Part shown: piece after piece, positions 3,775 through 8,155 of the stretch
Layout of the letters: each line of letters opens with the position of its first letter
Numbering within the stretch: position 1 is the stretch's first letter
Source: a virus
Taxonomy: Duplodnaviria > Heunggongvirae > Uroviricota > Caudoviricetes
Direction: 5' to 3' (one strand)
Virus record (IMG/VR): IMGVR_UViG_3300026224_000016
Length of the DNA: 9,689 nucleotides
Program-made: the position numbers and the translations under genes
The notes under the pieces: generated by a model
What the model was told of the DNA's origin: nothing
The model's database searches: none
The model's input: the letters and a program-made list of their open reading frames with translations, nothing else

Positions 3775-3995
3775 ACGGCACCTCCCAGGCGTTTAAACAT
3801 TTTTCCGGACTGAAACGCCACCAGTGGGTAACTGATGGTGTAGTTACGCCCCAGTAATTCACACACGACTTTCTGGCTTTCGGTACTGACCAGGCAAACC
3901 CGCAGAACATGGCCGTTGCTGGTGGCAAACCACTGCCCCACACGGGGGCAACGGTTGTATCGGTGATACAGGGAATTAACGACGCGGCGAATCAT
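3771..3995 (-). CDS. hypothetical protein (74 aa)
   Basis: ATG at 3995 overlaps the stop of the upstream 220-aa gene (ATGA at 3992-3995), with a GGGAAG SD-like element 7 nt upstream. The track's longer start at 4010 has no SD. No family recognised. Confidence 0.5.
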   Translation of the reverse strand: MIRRVVNSLYHRYNRCPRVGQWFATSNGHVLRVCLVSTESQKVVCELLGRNYTISYPLVAFQSGKMFKRLGGAV

Positions 3996-4654
3996 GGGCG
4001 CACTTCCCATTGATTACGGCGGAAAGCAGTGTGATTCAGGCTGGTTTCAGCCTCATGGAATGCTTCAATGCAGCTCTCGTAGTACCGCATTGTGCGCAGA
4101 CTTAACCCAAGCTGAAGCATCATCAGACCATCAAGGGTGATGTAATAACCACGCAGGGAATCGCCATACACGTGGTAAGTACCCGGAATGAAATTACGGG
4201 AGAAGAATTCACGTGAGCAGTTCAGATACTCGATTTTGTCGACGATGTTCTGGTGCATGCGCTTAAAGTGGCAGGCAACATGCAGGGAGAAAATAACAGC
4301 TTTGCCGTTGACGACTTCGATTTTCAGGTATGGGGAAGTTGGGACTGTAGCCATGATGGCAGCCTCCGTATGCAATGGATAACTTCCACCACCGGAAACG
4401 CCAATTTCACTGGTGGTGAACTGAACGGGGTTGGCGTAACCGGCGCATACGGAAACCGGCGCATCTTTCGATGCCCCCGCCCAGCCCACCATAATCTGGA
4501 TGTGAGCAAATGCGGACGATAAAAAAGACGCTGGCGCGTCGTATATCGCCGTATGCAATTCCAGGACGCCAATCCCGGCACCCGCTTTATAAGGTGCCAG
4601 AACAGTGTAACGTCCCGAAATTGCAGAATCAATATTTAGGCTTGAAACATTCAT
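3992..4654 (-). CDS. hypothetical protein (220 aa)
   Basis: Long ORF with protein-like composition, co-oriented with and coupled into the replication operon. Weak or absent SD upstream of ATG 4654. No motif recognised. Confidence 0.6.
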   Translation of the reverse strand: MNVSSLNIDSAISGRYTVLAPYKAGAGIGVLELHTAIYDAPASFLSSAFAHIQIMVGWAGASKDAPVSVCAGYANPVQFTTSEIGVSGGGSYPLHTEAAIMATVPTSPYLKIEVVNGKAVIFSLHVACHFKRMHQNIVDKIEYLNCSREFFSRNFIPGTYHVYGDSLRGYYITLDGLMMLQLGLSLRTMRYYESCIEAFHEAETSLNHTAFRRNQWEVRP

Positions 4655-4732: not shown

Positions 4733-4757
4733 GCCGGGTTACTACCCGGCTTTTTTT
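4733..4757 (+). terminator. rho-independent terminator-like hairpin, oriented for plus-strand transcripts
   Basis: GC-rich stem GCCGGGT (4733-4739) / ACCCGGC (4744-4750), loop TACT, followed by TTTTTTT (4751-4757). On the minus strand the hairpin is preceded by an A-tract and followed by non-U-rich sequence, so polarity favours the plus strand although it sits right at the Rha gene stop. Confidence 0.5.
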
Positions 4758-5464
4758 CACCGCTGCCAACCAATAACCTGAAATAACCCCATTTTCGGGT
4801 GATACCAGCGAGTCCCTCGCGGTTCTGCTTCCTCCATAACCCGATAAAAAGCAGCCATAAACGGTTCCACAGCAACAATTGCGCGACGTGACAACAATCC
4901 GTCCGGCGTCATGAACTCATGGGTGTCTGTAGGAATTTGATAGGCGTTCACCAGATTGCGGCATTTATCATCTGACAAACCGGTTTTTGCTTTCAGTTGG
5001 CGATATCCGGCATAGCCCTCACGAATGGTGCCCTTTTTGATTTGCTCAACTGTTTCGGCAACATGGCTGACTTTTTCTTCCACCTGAGTGATCCGTTTCT
5101 GCTGGCGAACAGCTTCAAGAGCCATCGCTGCAACCATTTCGATTTCGCTCATTGGCTTACGGATCTGTTCTTCCAGTTCGCGCCAGCGATCTACCAGGCG
5201 AGCAGTGAATTCAGGACAGAGCTGTGCGACGACAATGATGCTGTCGCGCTTACCTTGTTCTCCTTCAAACAGGTAATGCTCATATTGAACTTTAAAACCT
5301 AAGTTATTGATTCTTTCGGAAACCTCAATTTGAGGAGACCGGACAACGCCACCTTTGGCTAATGTTTCAATAGTGCGTTTCACATTGTCATGACGTTTAC
5401 CCACCAGCTCTGCGATTTCAACGCTGGTCATGGATACTTTGTCGTTAAAAATTGCAGCGTTCAT
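4757..5464 (-). CDS. rha: Rha-family phage regulatory protein / antirepressor-like (235 aa)
   Basis: N-terminal segment MTSVEIAELVGKRHDNVKRTIETL matches the characteristic Rha-family N-terminal motif. Start set to ATG 5464 (SD AAAGAGG about 7 nt upstream) rather than the track's 5488. Confidence 0.75.
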   Translation of the reverse strand: MNAAIFNDKVSMTSVEIAELVGKRHDNVKRTIETLAKGGVVRSPQIEVSERINNLGFKVQYEHYLFEGEQGKRDSIIVVAQLCPEFTARLVDRWRELEEQIRKPMSEIEMVAAMALEAVRQQKRITQVEEKVSHVAETVEQIKKGTIREGYAGYRQLKAKTGLSDDKCRNLVNAYQIPTDTHEFMTPDGLLSRRAIVAVEPFMAAFYRVMEEAEPRGTRWYHPKMGLFQVIGWQR

Positions 5465-5635
5465 TGTTGCCTCTTTACGAAAAACCATGATTAACCTCTA
5501 GCTTTCCCCGTCTTTTCCGCACTTCTTGTACGGTGATATTATTCAGTGCCGGATGCTTACCCGTGTCCGGCGCACGACCACACGTAGCCGCGTGTTGGTC
5601 TCCATTTTCAATTCAGCTCTCAATGGAGGATAAAA

Positions 5636-5881
5636 ATGTCAAATACCCAACATCTAAAAGCGGCGGATCCCGTTTTACGCCTCAATGCACTTGAAACGGT
5701 TGTTCGGGCGATGCTGTCGAGCATGACACCCGAGCAAATAAACAAAGCGCGATTGATTGCTACTCGTGGTGCCCAATTAGCAGCCCTAGATCCATTGCTC
5801 ACTCCTGCGAATCGCGAAGATGTAGAGCACATTCAGGGGATGGTTGATTATTTATTCGCCCATATTCCTGATCAGATTTGA
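5636..5881 (+). CDS. hypothetical protein (81 aa), opposite in orientation to the surrounding early operon
   Basis: Near-ideal SD GGAGGA (5625-5630) 5 nt before ATG 5636. Helix-rich, Ala/Leu-rich soluble-looking product. A hairpin GCCGCC/GGCGGC (5914-5936) followed by a T-rich stretch lies about 30 nt after the stop. No family recognised. Confidence 0.5.
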   Translation: MSNTQHLKAADPVLRLNALETVVRAMLSSMTPEQINKARLIATRGAQLAALDPLLTPANREDVEHIQGMVDYLFAHIPDQI

Positions 5882-5962
5882 TTCTTTGAACCATAATTTC
5901 AGCGATACGAATGGCCGCCGCTTCGAGCCTGGCGGCTTCTTTATCTGCATAAGAGCTACCCA

Positions 5963-6208
5963 TCACTTCTCGTCCTCTGTGTGCGCTAAGCTTGGGTGTG
6001 GAAAAAGCTCTGGTAGGTCTGGACGAAATTCATACGCTTGGATCTTTCCGTCGACAGCTGCAACCAATAACGGCACAAATTCTGGTGAAATCTTGTTCTT
6101 GCAGTTCAACCAATCGCAGACTGTTGACTGGGCCTTTCCGCATCGCTTGGCTAAGGCTTGCTGACTTCCAAGAATCTCAATAGCTTTCTCTATGGCTTTA
6201 TGTTTCAT
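5963..6208 (-). CDS. cro: Cro-like HTH transcriptional regulator (81 aa)
   Basis: Small HTH protein (GSQQALAKRCGKAQSTVCDWLN) transcribed divergently from the cI-like repressor. Start set to ATG 6208 with SD AGGAGA 7 nt upstream; the track's start at 6259 would lie upstream of the predicted promoter. Confidence 0.75.
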   Translation of the reverse strand: MKHKAIEKAIEILGSQQALAKRCGKAQSTVCDWLNCKNKISPEFVPLLVAAVDGKIQAYEFRPDLPELFPHPSLAHTEDEK

Positions 6209-6230
6209 AATCGCATCTCCTATTGAACGC

Positions 6231-6259
6231 ATAATAACAACAGGAAAAGCGATATTCAA
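6231..6259 (-). promoter_or_regulatory. candidate PR-like sigma70 promoter driving cro and the early operon
   Basis: Read on the minus strand: -35 TTGAAT (plus coordinates 6259-6254), 17-nt spacer, -10 TATTAT (6236-6231), placing the transcript start about 15-25 nt upstream of the cro ATG. Confidence 0.5.
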
Positions 6260-6277
6260 CGTTAAACCTAGAACATT

Positions 6278-6293
6278 TATCGGAAAGCCGATA
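6278..6293. promoter_or_regulatory. 16-bp palindrome TATCGGAAAGCCGATA in the cro-cI intergenic region; candidate operator
   Basis: Inverted repeat TATCGG-N4-CCGATA read directly, lying between the divergent cro and cI starts, where lambdoid OR operators occur. Confidence 0.45.
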
Positions 6294-6327
6294 GACTAGC
6301 CAGGATAGAGAGGGGAGGAAAATCGCA

Positions 6328-7020
6328 ATGACATTTTCAGAACGACTTGATTTAGCTATGCGCAACGCAAAATTTACGCAAGGTAGGCTGGCCAAAGAAG
6401 TGGGTATGGCTCAGTCCAGTGTCAATCAACTACTTAACAAAGCCAACGGTTCCAGAAAAACAGTCGAAATAGCAAAAGTTTTGGGCGTTAACCCGGAATG
6501 GCTCGCATCGGGTGTTGGCCCAATGGAAATCGTGACCTCTGCAGACTCACACCAAATACGTAACATTTCTGAAGATTGGGTTACTGATTCGTATGTCGTG
6601 GATGTTTTAGACATCAGATATAGTTGCGGACCTGGTAGTTATAACTCTGATTTTCCTGACATTGTCAGATCTATAGCGATAGAACCAGGATACGCATCAA
6701 GAGTTTTTGGCGGCAGGCCAGCATCAGCAATCAAAGCAATAAACGCCCACGGCGACAGTATGAAAGGCACAATAGACCCTGAAGACTTGGTATTTGTAGA
6801 TGTATCAGTTCGCACATTTAATGGTGATGGTATATACGCCTTTACATACTCTGGAACATCGCACATCAAAAGACTTCAAAAAATCAAAGATACTCTAACG
6901 GTGATATCTGACAACCCAGCTTACAAGGATTGGGCTATCGAACCGGAAGACTTCGAACAACTTCACATTGACGGAAAAGTAATTGTCAGTTGGCCCATGA
7001 CACTACACCGTTTTGCATAA
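6328..7020 (+). CDS. cI: CI-like prophage repressor: N-terminal XRE-type HTH plus C-terminal LexA/S24 autopeptidase domain (230 aa)
   Basis: HTH FTQGRLAKEVGMAQSSVNQLLN. S24 catalytic signatures: Ser in AHGDSMKG and Lys in HIKRLQK. SD GGAGG 9 nt before ATG 6328. Divergent from cro. Confidence 0.9.
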   Translation: MTFSERLDLAMRNAKFTQGRLAKEVGMAQSSVNQLLNKANGSRKTVEIAKVLGVNPEWLASGVGPMEIVTSADSHQIRNISEDWVTDSYVVDVLDIRYSCGPGSYNSDFPDIVRSIAIEPGYASRVFGGRPASAIKAINAHGDSMKGTIDPEDLVFVDVSVRTFNGDGIYAFTYSGTSHIKRLQKIKDTLTVISDNPAYKDWAIEPEDFEQLHIDGKVIVSWPMTLHRFA

Positions 7021-7038
7021 GCAAAAATCATTTAACCC

Positions 7039-7064
7039 GCCCACTCTTAAGTGGGCTTTTTTTT
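7039..7064 (+). terminator. rho-independent terminator downstream of cI
   Basis: Stem GCCCACT (7039-7045) / AGTGGGC (7050-7056), loop CTTA, followed by eight T residues (7057-7064), 19 nt after the cI stop. Confidence 0.8.
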
Positions 7065-7085
7065 GGAAAAAAATCGATAAACCGA

Positions 7086-7114
7086 TTGACAGACAAAATC
7101 GGCAAACCTATTAT
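7086..7114 (+). promoter_or_regulatory. sigma70-like promoter for the accessory cassette, with flanking repeats
   Basis: -35 TTGACA (7086-7091), 17-nt spacer, -10 TATTAT (7109-7114). Direct repeats AAATCGATAAACC (7071-7083) and AAATCGGCAAACC (7096-7108) flank the -35, and CCGATT (7082-7087) / AATCGG (7096-7101) form an inverted pair. Confidence 0.55.
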
Positions 7115-7163
7115 CATGGCATAGGTATCGAACTCACCAAAGCAATTATAGAGGATGAGAAAA

Positions 7164-7661
7164 ATGTCATCGTATATGGGGTTACCAACAAATCAGCACG
7201 ATGCTCTTGAGAATATTCAACTCTTAGTAGGGGCTGGTGCACTACTGTATAGCAGCAATAATCCTGAGTTAATTGAACTTGCCAGCTCCATCCTGGCTGT
7301 AACTCAAAAATACAGCCTCACCGCGTCGCGTTTATGCAAACAAAATTTAGCTATTAATTCCCAGAATCGGATTCGCACCCAACGCGAAGCCTGCGGCTTA
7401 ACAACCGCCGAACTCGCCAGGCTGCTCGATCTCGATGAAGAAATTATCATCCAGTGGGAGAGCGGAGAGTATGAACCAACTATCAGTATGCTTATCCCAC
7501 TGGCAAATATTCTTGGCTGCGATCCGATGTGGCTGTTAACTGGCGAAGTTACTCCTCCGGAGCAACCAAAAAGTGAGGAGCAGCAACACCATGACGCATC
7601 TCAACAAGTTTGCTCCTTATCTCGCGAAGCTCTTCTACGGAAGAACCAATACCAATGGTGA
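7164..7661 (+). CDS. HTH (XRE/Cro-C1-type) DNA-binding protein with an uncharacterised N-terminal domain (165 aa)
   Basis: C-terminal half has a classic XRE HTH (LTTAELARLLDLDEEIIIQWESGEYEPTISMLIPLANILGCDPMWLLTG). The roughly 75-aa N-terminal region matches nothing I recognise. Start chosen at ATG 7164 (SD GAGGA, 8-nt spacer). Confidence 0.7.
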   Translation: MSSYMGLPTNQHDALENIQLLVGAGALLYSSNNPELIELASSILAVTQKYSLTASRLCKQNLAINSQNRIRTQREACGLTTAELARLLDLDEEIIIQWESGEYEPTISMLIPLANILGCDPMWLLTGEVTPPEQPKSEEQQHHDASQQVCSLSREALLRKNQYQW

Positions 7662-7789
7662 CATAATCGCCGCTTCGCCCCTCAAGGTACATGCGAACAT
7701 TTTTATCAATCATTGCGGAAACAGTCTCAATATGAAAACACTTCTGAGACTCGCTATATAGCAGAACATATAAGTCAGCTGAGGAAGCC

Positions 7790-8155
7790 ATGAAAAAGTT
7801 CGAAAACATAACTGTTCTCCATGTTGATGACTTTGATTATACAAACCCGGAACCTCTCCCGGAGGTTGTAAAGGCAATAGATGTTGCCGATATAGTGATT
7901 AGAGGAAAGAGAATTGTCAAAAACAGGCTCGCATGCACTTCAGGAGCAATGACAAAAACAACCTCACAACAAGATGATTATGAAGGCATTTGTCTGGAGC
8001 CGGACTCATTTGCGGTAAATGTTTATCATTTATTGCATGCAACACAGGTATTACATATGTCCAGTAATCACGAAACAAAAACACTTGGCAGCGAAATTCT
8101 GAATTTTGCATGTGAATATGCAAAAGCTGCTGCCGAAAAAGAATTAGCGCAATAA
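7790..8155 (+). CDS. hypothetical protein (121 aa)
   Basis: ORF with SD GAGGAAG immediately upstream of ATG 7790, co-oriented with the HTH gene. No motif recognised. Confidence 0.6.
   Translation: MKKFENITVLHVDDFDYTNPEPLPEVVKAIDVADIVIRGKRIVKNRLACTSGAMTKTTSQQDDYEGICLEPDSFAVNVYHLLHATQVLHMSSNHETKTLGSEILNFACEYAKAAAEKELAQ

Follow-up and report, generated by a model that had tools for sequence, protein, structure and literature searches.

The window analysed here, i.e. the whole stretch of 9,689 nt, comprises the immunity and early region of a lambdoid Escherichia coli prophage (Table 1). The repressor gene cI is carried by the plus strand, followed by cro, Rha and the replication genes on the minus strand. 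The minus strand therefore corresponds to the PR operon, and the plus strand to the cI/PL direction. The cro-like gene is the first gene of this rightward early operon. Past the Rha/Ant-like gene, the same strand presents the Ash+Rha ORF, an O-like gene, a DnaC-like gene and DnaB. Two converging reading frames lie between cro and Rha, an 81-codon ORF on the plus strand and a 54-codon ORF on the minus strand.

Table 1. Coordinates of the genes, candidate signals and matches discussed in the text
Feature	Position	Strand	Remarks
Ash+Rha ORF	3992-4654	-	220 aa
C4 antisense RNA match (Rfam)	4409-4496	-	80.5 bits
isrK match (Rfam)	4521-4597	-	61.8 bits
c4-a1b1 target match	4558-4610		weak
Rha/Ant-like regulator	4757-5488	-	Next operon gene after cro; Pfam Phage_pRha, phrog_63; PGAP start 5464
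Promoter-like extended -10, TGaTATTAT	5534-5542	+	Candidate, proposed from the sequence; ends 3 nt before the leader
Conserved structured 5' leader, three hairpins	5546-5635	+	Covariance model R1, 5546-5637, 103.4 bits
Hairpin A	5546-5573	+	
Hairpin B	5576-5600	+	
Hairpin C	5601-5627	+	
SD sequence GGAGGA	5625-5630	+	5 nt before the ATG
81-aa protein gene, cassette cargo	5636-5881	+	PGAP CDS WP_000072550.1
Third ORF	5620-5832	-	70 aa; not a gene
54-codon ORF	5799-5963	-	ATG overlapping the cro stop; not called by PGAP; 5799-5966 from GTG
Overlap of the plus and minus ORFs	5799-5881		83 nt
Intrinsic terminator of the plus gene	5913-5945	+	Stem GGCCGCC/GGCGGCU, tail UCUUUAUC; inside the minus ORF
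cro-like HTH gene, YdaS family	5963-6259	-	Pfam YdaS_toxin 1.3e-14, phrog_35; PGAP start 6208
Perfect palindrome, likely operator	6278-6293		TATCGGAAAGCCGATA
LexA/S24-type repressor (cI)	6328-7020	+	
Hairpin and T-run, probable cI terminator	6985-7064	+	GCCCACTCTTAAGTGGGCTTTTTTTT; weak Trp_leader match
Palindrome copies, likely operators	7072-7087, 7097-7112		Three mismatches each
HTH gene	7155-7661	+	
Second antiparallel gene	7549-7809	-	phrog_6104, 9.6e-50

Both reading frames were found where the earlier note had placed them; its translation of the minus ORF is exact, and the overlap of about 83 nt that it reported has this length. The signals that it had listed are also present. The ATG of the minus ORF sits within the cro stop codon (TGATG), sharing the A of TGA, with AGAGGA 9 nt upstream (minus strand, AGAGGACGAGAAGTGATG); the product is 54 aa long from this ATG and 55 aa long from the alternative GTG start. 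The plus ORF is preceded by a strong SD sequence and followed by a terminator-like hairpin (5913-5937, 7 bp, dG -14.2), then TCTTTATC. As about 30 ORFs of at least 54 codons exist in non-gene frames of the window, the mere existence of either ORF is not beyond chance. What is beyond chance is that the plus-strand protein family is conserved, as is the sequence preceding the plus ORF. A third ORF, on the minus strand, is interrupted by a stop codon in the L006/L007 lineage and was therefore rejected as a gene.

The 81-codon plus ORF is a real gene. Three complete E. coli genomes contain the whole region used as query (5450-6300), and in these PGAP calls it as a hypothetical protein; the exact 81-aa protein is recorded from 93 contigs. 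A profile search among 1.84 billion representatives gave nine matches with E <= 0.001, of which eight are full-length (79-82 aa, E <= 2.4e-5) and the ninth is a partial match to a 416-aa protein; word-index searches added the family members P0002, P0003 and P0014. The aligned members are 27-77% identical to the plus-strand protein, come from Escherichia, Serratia and Enterobacter prophages and also from metagenomes, and share the motifs R-x-N-A-x-E-x-V-x-R and F-x-F-A-H-x-P. Outside the overlap, the pN/pS of the plus ORF is 0.17-0.54, while two of the three antisense frames are at about 1 or more and the third is at 0.29-0.59. The family is conserved over its full length across genera. The product is hydrophilic and predicted by AlphaFold (AF2) to form a bundle of three helices (pLDDT 78). 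No match to the 81-aa protein was found in Pfam, PHROG, NCBIfam, PADLOC or the PDB; a fold search with its model returned generic helical matches only, and a search for related loci among genome contigs found none.

Then, we considered the position of this gene relative to the early operons. As the earlier note had remarked for a plus-strand gene at this place, it runs against the early operon, and this orientation is the rule in its whole family and in the much larger cassette class described below. Wherever a locus included sufficient flanking sequence, the family member and the neighbouring early operon, be it PL or PR, run antiparallel. It lies on the PR side, after cro, in the window, L004-L011 and L163, and on the PL side, after the repressor gene, in Serratia (L157/158), Enterobacter (L159/160), L161, L165 and L167. 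Two short contigs (L168 and L169) show only the converging neighbour. In a crude count of orientation by ORF coverage, the downstream side is opposite in 66 of 74 cases and the upstream side is uninformative. The module is mosaic. Some part of the query matches in 104 E. coli genomes, and among the matches listed the partial ones cover the cro side only, with identity ending at 5960-5969; the boundary is exactly at the cro stop. The gene thus appears as an insertion between genes of otherwise conserved order.

Other backward genes were seen in comparable positions. In L003 (2140-2514), the same cro is followed, in the slot between cro and Rha, by an unrelated backward gene of 97 aa (phrog_4753) that has no such leader and is almost wholly covered by a 117-codon antisense ORF without family match. 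The window itself contains a second gene antiparallel to its operon (7549-7809), which converges on an HTH gene with an overlap of 113 nt. In phiP27 and L005, a leader cassette with a 75-aa cargo takes the place of the 3' part of this gene.

The earlier note had left the choice between one real ORF and a genuine antisense overlap. The plus gene is real; that the 54-codon minus ORF is also a functional gene is doubtful. In a genuine convergent pair, the 54-aa frame would be functional and coupled to cro, and the 3' overlap would itself be selected, e.g. as a linkage through an RNA duplex. Such a pair is a tentative proposal, which we hold to be somewhat improbable. The open frame, its length, TGATG and AGAGGA are kept in three lineages (85-90% DNA identity), beside five cro alleles, as expected of a functional frame. 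Moreover, a hand count of the ~16 substitutions outside the overlap assigned about half of them to third codon positions of the minus ORF, but this excess is not significant (P estimated at about 0.13). The pN/pS of the minus ORF (0.1-0.43) is based on few changes and is indistinguishable from that of control frames, and since the converging ORF of L160/L165 has a pN/pS of 0.83, the substitution test has little power for such genes. No homologues of the minus ORF were found outside the module, its only two protein clusters both coming from it, and PGAP omits the frame. ORFs of its size also arise by chance, as counted above.

The relatives bear on the pair in both directions. An operon-strand ORF abuts or overlaps the 3' end of the plus gene in every locus examined, and the N-terminal halves of three of the four converging ORFs scanned match PHROG families. 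The converging ORFs end in a similar motif, AAxxIAxxxxxxI(K/R), the position of which relative to the plus ORF varies by subfamily; against a tiny database, the motif reaches BLAST E-values of only 0.007-0.7, and part of it mirrors, in antisense, the conserved FAHIP of the plus-strand protein. In addition, the overlaps measured in relatives are of -3, 4, 26, 32, 33, 38, 45 and 53 nt. With a range from -3 to 83 nt and a varying frame relation, the overlap is not conserved. At the terminator, which lies inside the minus ORF, the loop has evolved at the expense of the minus-strand protein while the stem was kept: in the L011 lineage, about seven loop bases differ, the stem is unchanged and the protein is altered from RLEA to NFEE. 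Most likely, the minus ORF is either a minor gene or a short run-on frame with coupling to cro. The overlap does exist, but it probably arose as a side effect of close convergent packing, and its 83 nt are probably not required as such.

The most informative feature of the locus, missed in the earlier note, is a conserved structured leader of 90 nt immediately upstream of the plus gene, which is more conserved than the 81-codon ORF itself. Hairpin A has a near-invariant core, CCGGAU...UCCGG, followed by CGCACGA. In hairpin B, the sequence is variable and the pairing is kept: CACACG/CGUGUG becomes CACAUG/CAUGUG, GACCU.../...AAGGUC, CUCCAC/GUGGAG in L059 or GAUCACCACA/UGUGGUGAUC in L163. The abundant variant of L017 has two A-A mismatches in this stem. 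In hairpin C, UCCAUU pairs with AAUGGA and covers part of the SD sequence GGAGGA (dG about -6.9 kcal/mol). This pairing is predicted at 25-45 C, so that the SD sequence would be sequestered. The corresponding helix (helix 3) has 97.5% of its cells paired and two pairs changed on both sides.

We built the covariance model R1 from 35 leader copies and used it to score the regions upstream of distant members of the 81-aa family. It gave 60.5 bits for L169, 51.1 for L157, 49.0 for L163, 40.9 for L159, 25.9 for L165 and a marginal 14.4 for L167 (E 0.11); in L161, R1 gives no match and no leader is recognisable. Across 47 distinct leaders, the proportion of paired cells is 90.4%, and it does not exceed 50% once the partners are slid. 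Nine pairs are changed on both sides, against 2.2 in shuffles (none of 500 shuffles reaches nine); as the alignment had been fitted to the model, these counts are biased towards the structure. A search with Rfam 15 at 5546-5637 gave no match at E <= 1. On the leader copy of O157, no Rfam family matched the leader at E <= 0.1, whereas the nearby DicF was detected. A full-text literature search with the core sequence of the leader retrieved no paper, and a keyword search of the literature nothing specific. The leader, common to many backward small genes, appears undescribed.

The strand on which the element acts decides between two of its readings. It could act on the minus strand, i.e. on the operon transcript, as a put/nut-like antiterminator, a processing site or a barrier, with the plus-strand ORFs secondary. 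The HK022 put RNAs offer a precedent: they are multi-hairpin elements that N-less lambdoid phages carry in each of their two early operons, on the PR side downstream of cro (PMC9378689). The leader copies likewise occur in both PL- and PR-type operons, in constant orientation relative to the operon flow, as for HK022 putL/putR (PMC9378689), and no N-like gene was seen among the ORFs of the window. But the minus strand folds no better than shuffled sequences (-33.8 kcal/mol, z -1.5), against -38.1 kcal/mol and z -4.9 for the plus strand; paired cells amount to 82% on the minus and 90.4% on the plus strand, and G-U cells number 144 on the plus reading versus 39 on the minus. Moreover, the element ends in an invariant SD sequence and ATG at fixed spacing, with a plus-strand ORF in nearly every copy. 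The G-U asymmetry, the fold z-scores, the invariant SD/ATG and the ORFs that follow together identify it as a plus-strand mRNA leader, and action on the operon strand is highly improbable. A put-like antiterminator was also sought directly and rejected: blastn-short against the HK022 genome gave chance matches of 10-14 nt, and the put motifs are absent. Like putL/putR, the leader is a multi-hairpin element of roughly 70-90 nt present in both early operons; unlike them, it is structured on the opposite strand, has three hairpins of which the last contains the SD sequence and precedes an ORF, and shares no sequence similarity with them.

We also considered the possibility that the plus transcript is mainly an antisense RNA directed against the early operon, comparable with lambda oop, the PRE transcript or P22 sar, and that the protein is incidental. 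Over its whole length, the transcript would be complementary to the stretch of the PR transcript that separates cro from Rha, its position is of the lambda PRE/oop type, and the convergent arrangement recurs across loci. Conservation of the protein over its full length, down to 27% identity, is contrary to what an incidental product predicts. The cargo ORFs that follow the leader, moreover, are wholly different while SD and ATG are fixed, which points to translation as the selected output. We consider a main role as antisense RNA improbable and retain the reading of the element as the leader of a translated mRNA.

To describe how widely this leader is spread, the module was searched by distant blastn. 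Matches were found in 973 of 5426 complete E. coli genomes (~18%), with a median of two places each. Save for the three genomes with full-length matches, the matches listed cover essentially the leader segment alone; the segment is also present in phiP27. In the IMG/VR loci, the leader precedes at least 13 unrelated small ORFs (57-101 aa), at the fixed spacing GGAGGAUAAAAUG. A plus-strand open frame follows nearly every copy, a few copies being truncated or frameshifted. Ten cargoes were tested further: seven match PHROG families of unknown function, one of these seven is also annotated as GhoS/DUF2622 by NCBI, and the others are 'hypothetical'. The cargoes are hydrophilic and not toxin-like.

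Several further copies deserve mention. A 17-nt leader pattern searched in genome contigs gave mostly chance matches in GC-rich genomes and one true copy, in Edwardsiella ictaluri (L201), where a 30-codon ORF comes after a leader whose stem B is different and compensated. With this copy, the range of the leader extends beyond Escherichia, Serratia and Enterobacter. In the commonest leader class (L013, 3438-3505 and 3205-3256), about 65 more bases are conserved upstream, including a CCCTGA-CTTT-TCAGGG hairpin. Stx phages (3500-3561 of P13374, L014, and similar) carry truncated remnants with hairpin A and half of B (29.7 bits), located in the PL-side region without SD sequence or ORF. In O157, a ydfC-like gene and dicB flank the cassette, and DicF lies at a distance of about 250 nt.

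The two ends of the transcription unit differ in their support, the terminator being better supported than the promoter. The stem of the plus-strand hairpin is invariant over a diverged loop, so this hairpin behaves as a selected terminator, and the cassette possesses a terminator of its own. As it lacks a U-tract on the minus strand, PR transcription should pass through it. The distant family members show no consistent terminator. At the other end, an extended -10 element is a candidate promoter. In the E. coli leader classes read by eye, the end of a -10-like hexamer is 6-7 nt upstream of CCGGA, with TTTTCA-17-TAAACT in the majority class and TTGAGA-17-GATAAT in phiP27; the copies of Serratia (L157) and L163 have a weak or unclear hexamer, and a promoter consensus scan did not score the element at 5534-5542. 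Hairpin A would be the 5' end of the transcript if this candidate is used. No cI-operator-like site was found near the candidate promoter.

Taken together, these features lead us to favour, with some confidence, the reading of 5534-5945 as a self-contained accessory cassette inserted backward between cro and Rha, with promoter, leader, ORF and terminator. A sigma-70 promoter with the extended -10 would start the plus transcript at ~5546-5550, and the first ~90 nt would then fold into the 5'-terminal hairpin A, the sequence-variable hairpin B and the SD-pairing hairpin C. With a hairpin at its 5' end and another pairing with the SD sequence, such a leader would make the mRNA more stable and would either throttle or gate its translation. 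The 81-aa three-helix protein would be made from this mRNA, and the one-directional terminator would halt the transcript before it runs antisense into cro. As the cassette opposes PR and no repressor operator was found nearby, its expression probably takes place in the lysogen, where PR is silent. Once the prophage is induced, converging PR transcription and the formation of RNA duplexes would work against the cassette.

The closest parallel is lambda sieB, which in the lambda record (34482-35036, plus strand) abuts N (35037-35438, minus strand) stop-to-stop. As in sieB and the morons, a small gene stands antiparallel to the early operon, after its first gene and converging on it, with its own expression signals (the promoter being putative here), a terminator, mosaic boundaries and probable expression in the prophage. 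The protein of the window has no sequence relation to sieB and appears to be a soluble three-helix protein. The difference from the morons is the conserved structured leader common to many unrelated cargoes, and we know of no description of such a leader for them.

Ribosome-binding sites paired in a local hairpin, with structures upstream, are also found in RNA thermometers, hok/zorO-type toxin leaders and the lambda cIII leader. The present leader has no sequence or Rfam relation to these, and here a single leader serves many hydrophilic cargoes that are not toxin-like. We identified no alternative conserved pairing or partner that would open hairpin C. Type I toxin-antitoxin units (txpA/RatA, bsrG/SR4) are likewise convergent prophage units with overlapping 3' ends. 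The pair described here differs from them by ORFs on both strands, by the lack of a small hydrophobic peptide and by an overlap of variable extent. An assignment to this type was rejected, the 81-aa product being hydrophilic with a predicted three-helix bundle and the partner strand being the operon mRNA.

A bolder proposal is that the leader forms a new class of cis-regulatory RNA, a shared platform for exchangeable backward proteins of the early operons, in which a signal would gate hairpins A and C, the cargo and PR or PL would form a two-way switch, and the 54-codon ORF would be a real partner coupled to cro. We regard this proposal as unlikely. If true, the cargo would be on in the lysogen, and cargo and PR or PL would shut each other off by mutual antisense at induction.

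Annotations of small counter-oriented prophage genes usually stop at 'hypothetical'. The plus gene is of an ordinary kind, a sieB-like backward accessory gene, and the leader is the part worth following. One leader stands before more than 12 unrelated small proteins in about one fifth of complete E. coli genomes, O157 strains included. Its covariance model is a handle for finding counter-oriented prophage genes, and the study of this one regulatory element would explain the expression of all the cargoes that it precedes. The apparent puzzle of overlapping genes is best read as a backward accessory cassette that abuts an operon, as lambda sieB abuts N.

Finally, three minor observations concern the regulatory regions around the module. 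The C4 and isrK matches and the weak c4-a1b1 target match fall in the Ash+Rha ORF. The arrangement resembles P1 immI, with an antirepressor module of the PR operon under C4 control, and the Ash portion of the ORF may represent an RNA instead of a protein. The leader was tried as a target of these C4/IsrK RNAs and rejected, the duplex energies being within the shuffled controls (z -0.8 to 0.0). The hairpin and T-run after the cI stop are strong and probably form the cI terminator, the Trp_leader match there being weak. A perfect palindrome lies between cro and cI, and two copies of it directly follow cI; a search for this palindrome gave seven matches versus 2.6 expected, and these three sites are likely the OR and OL operators.
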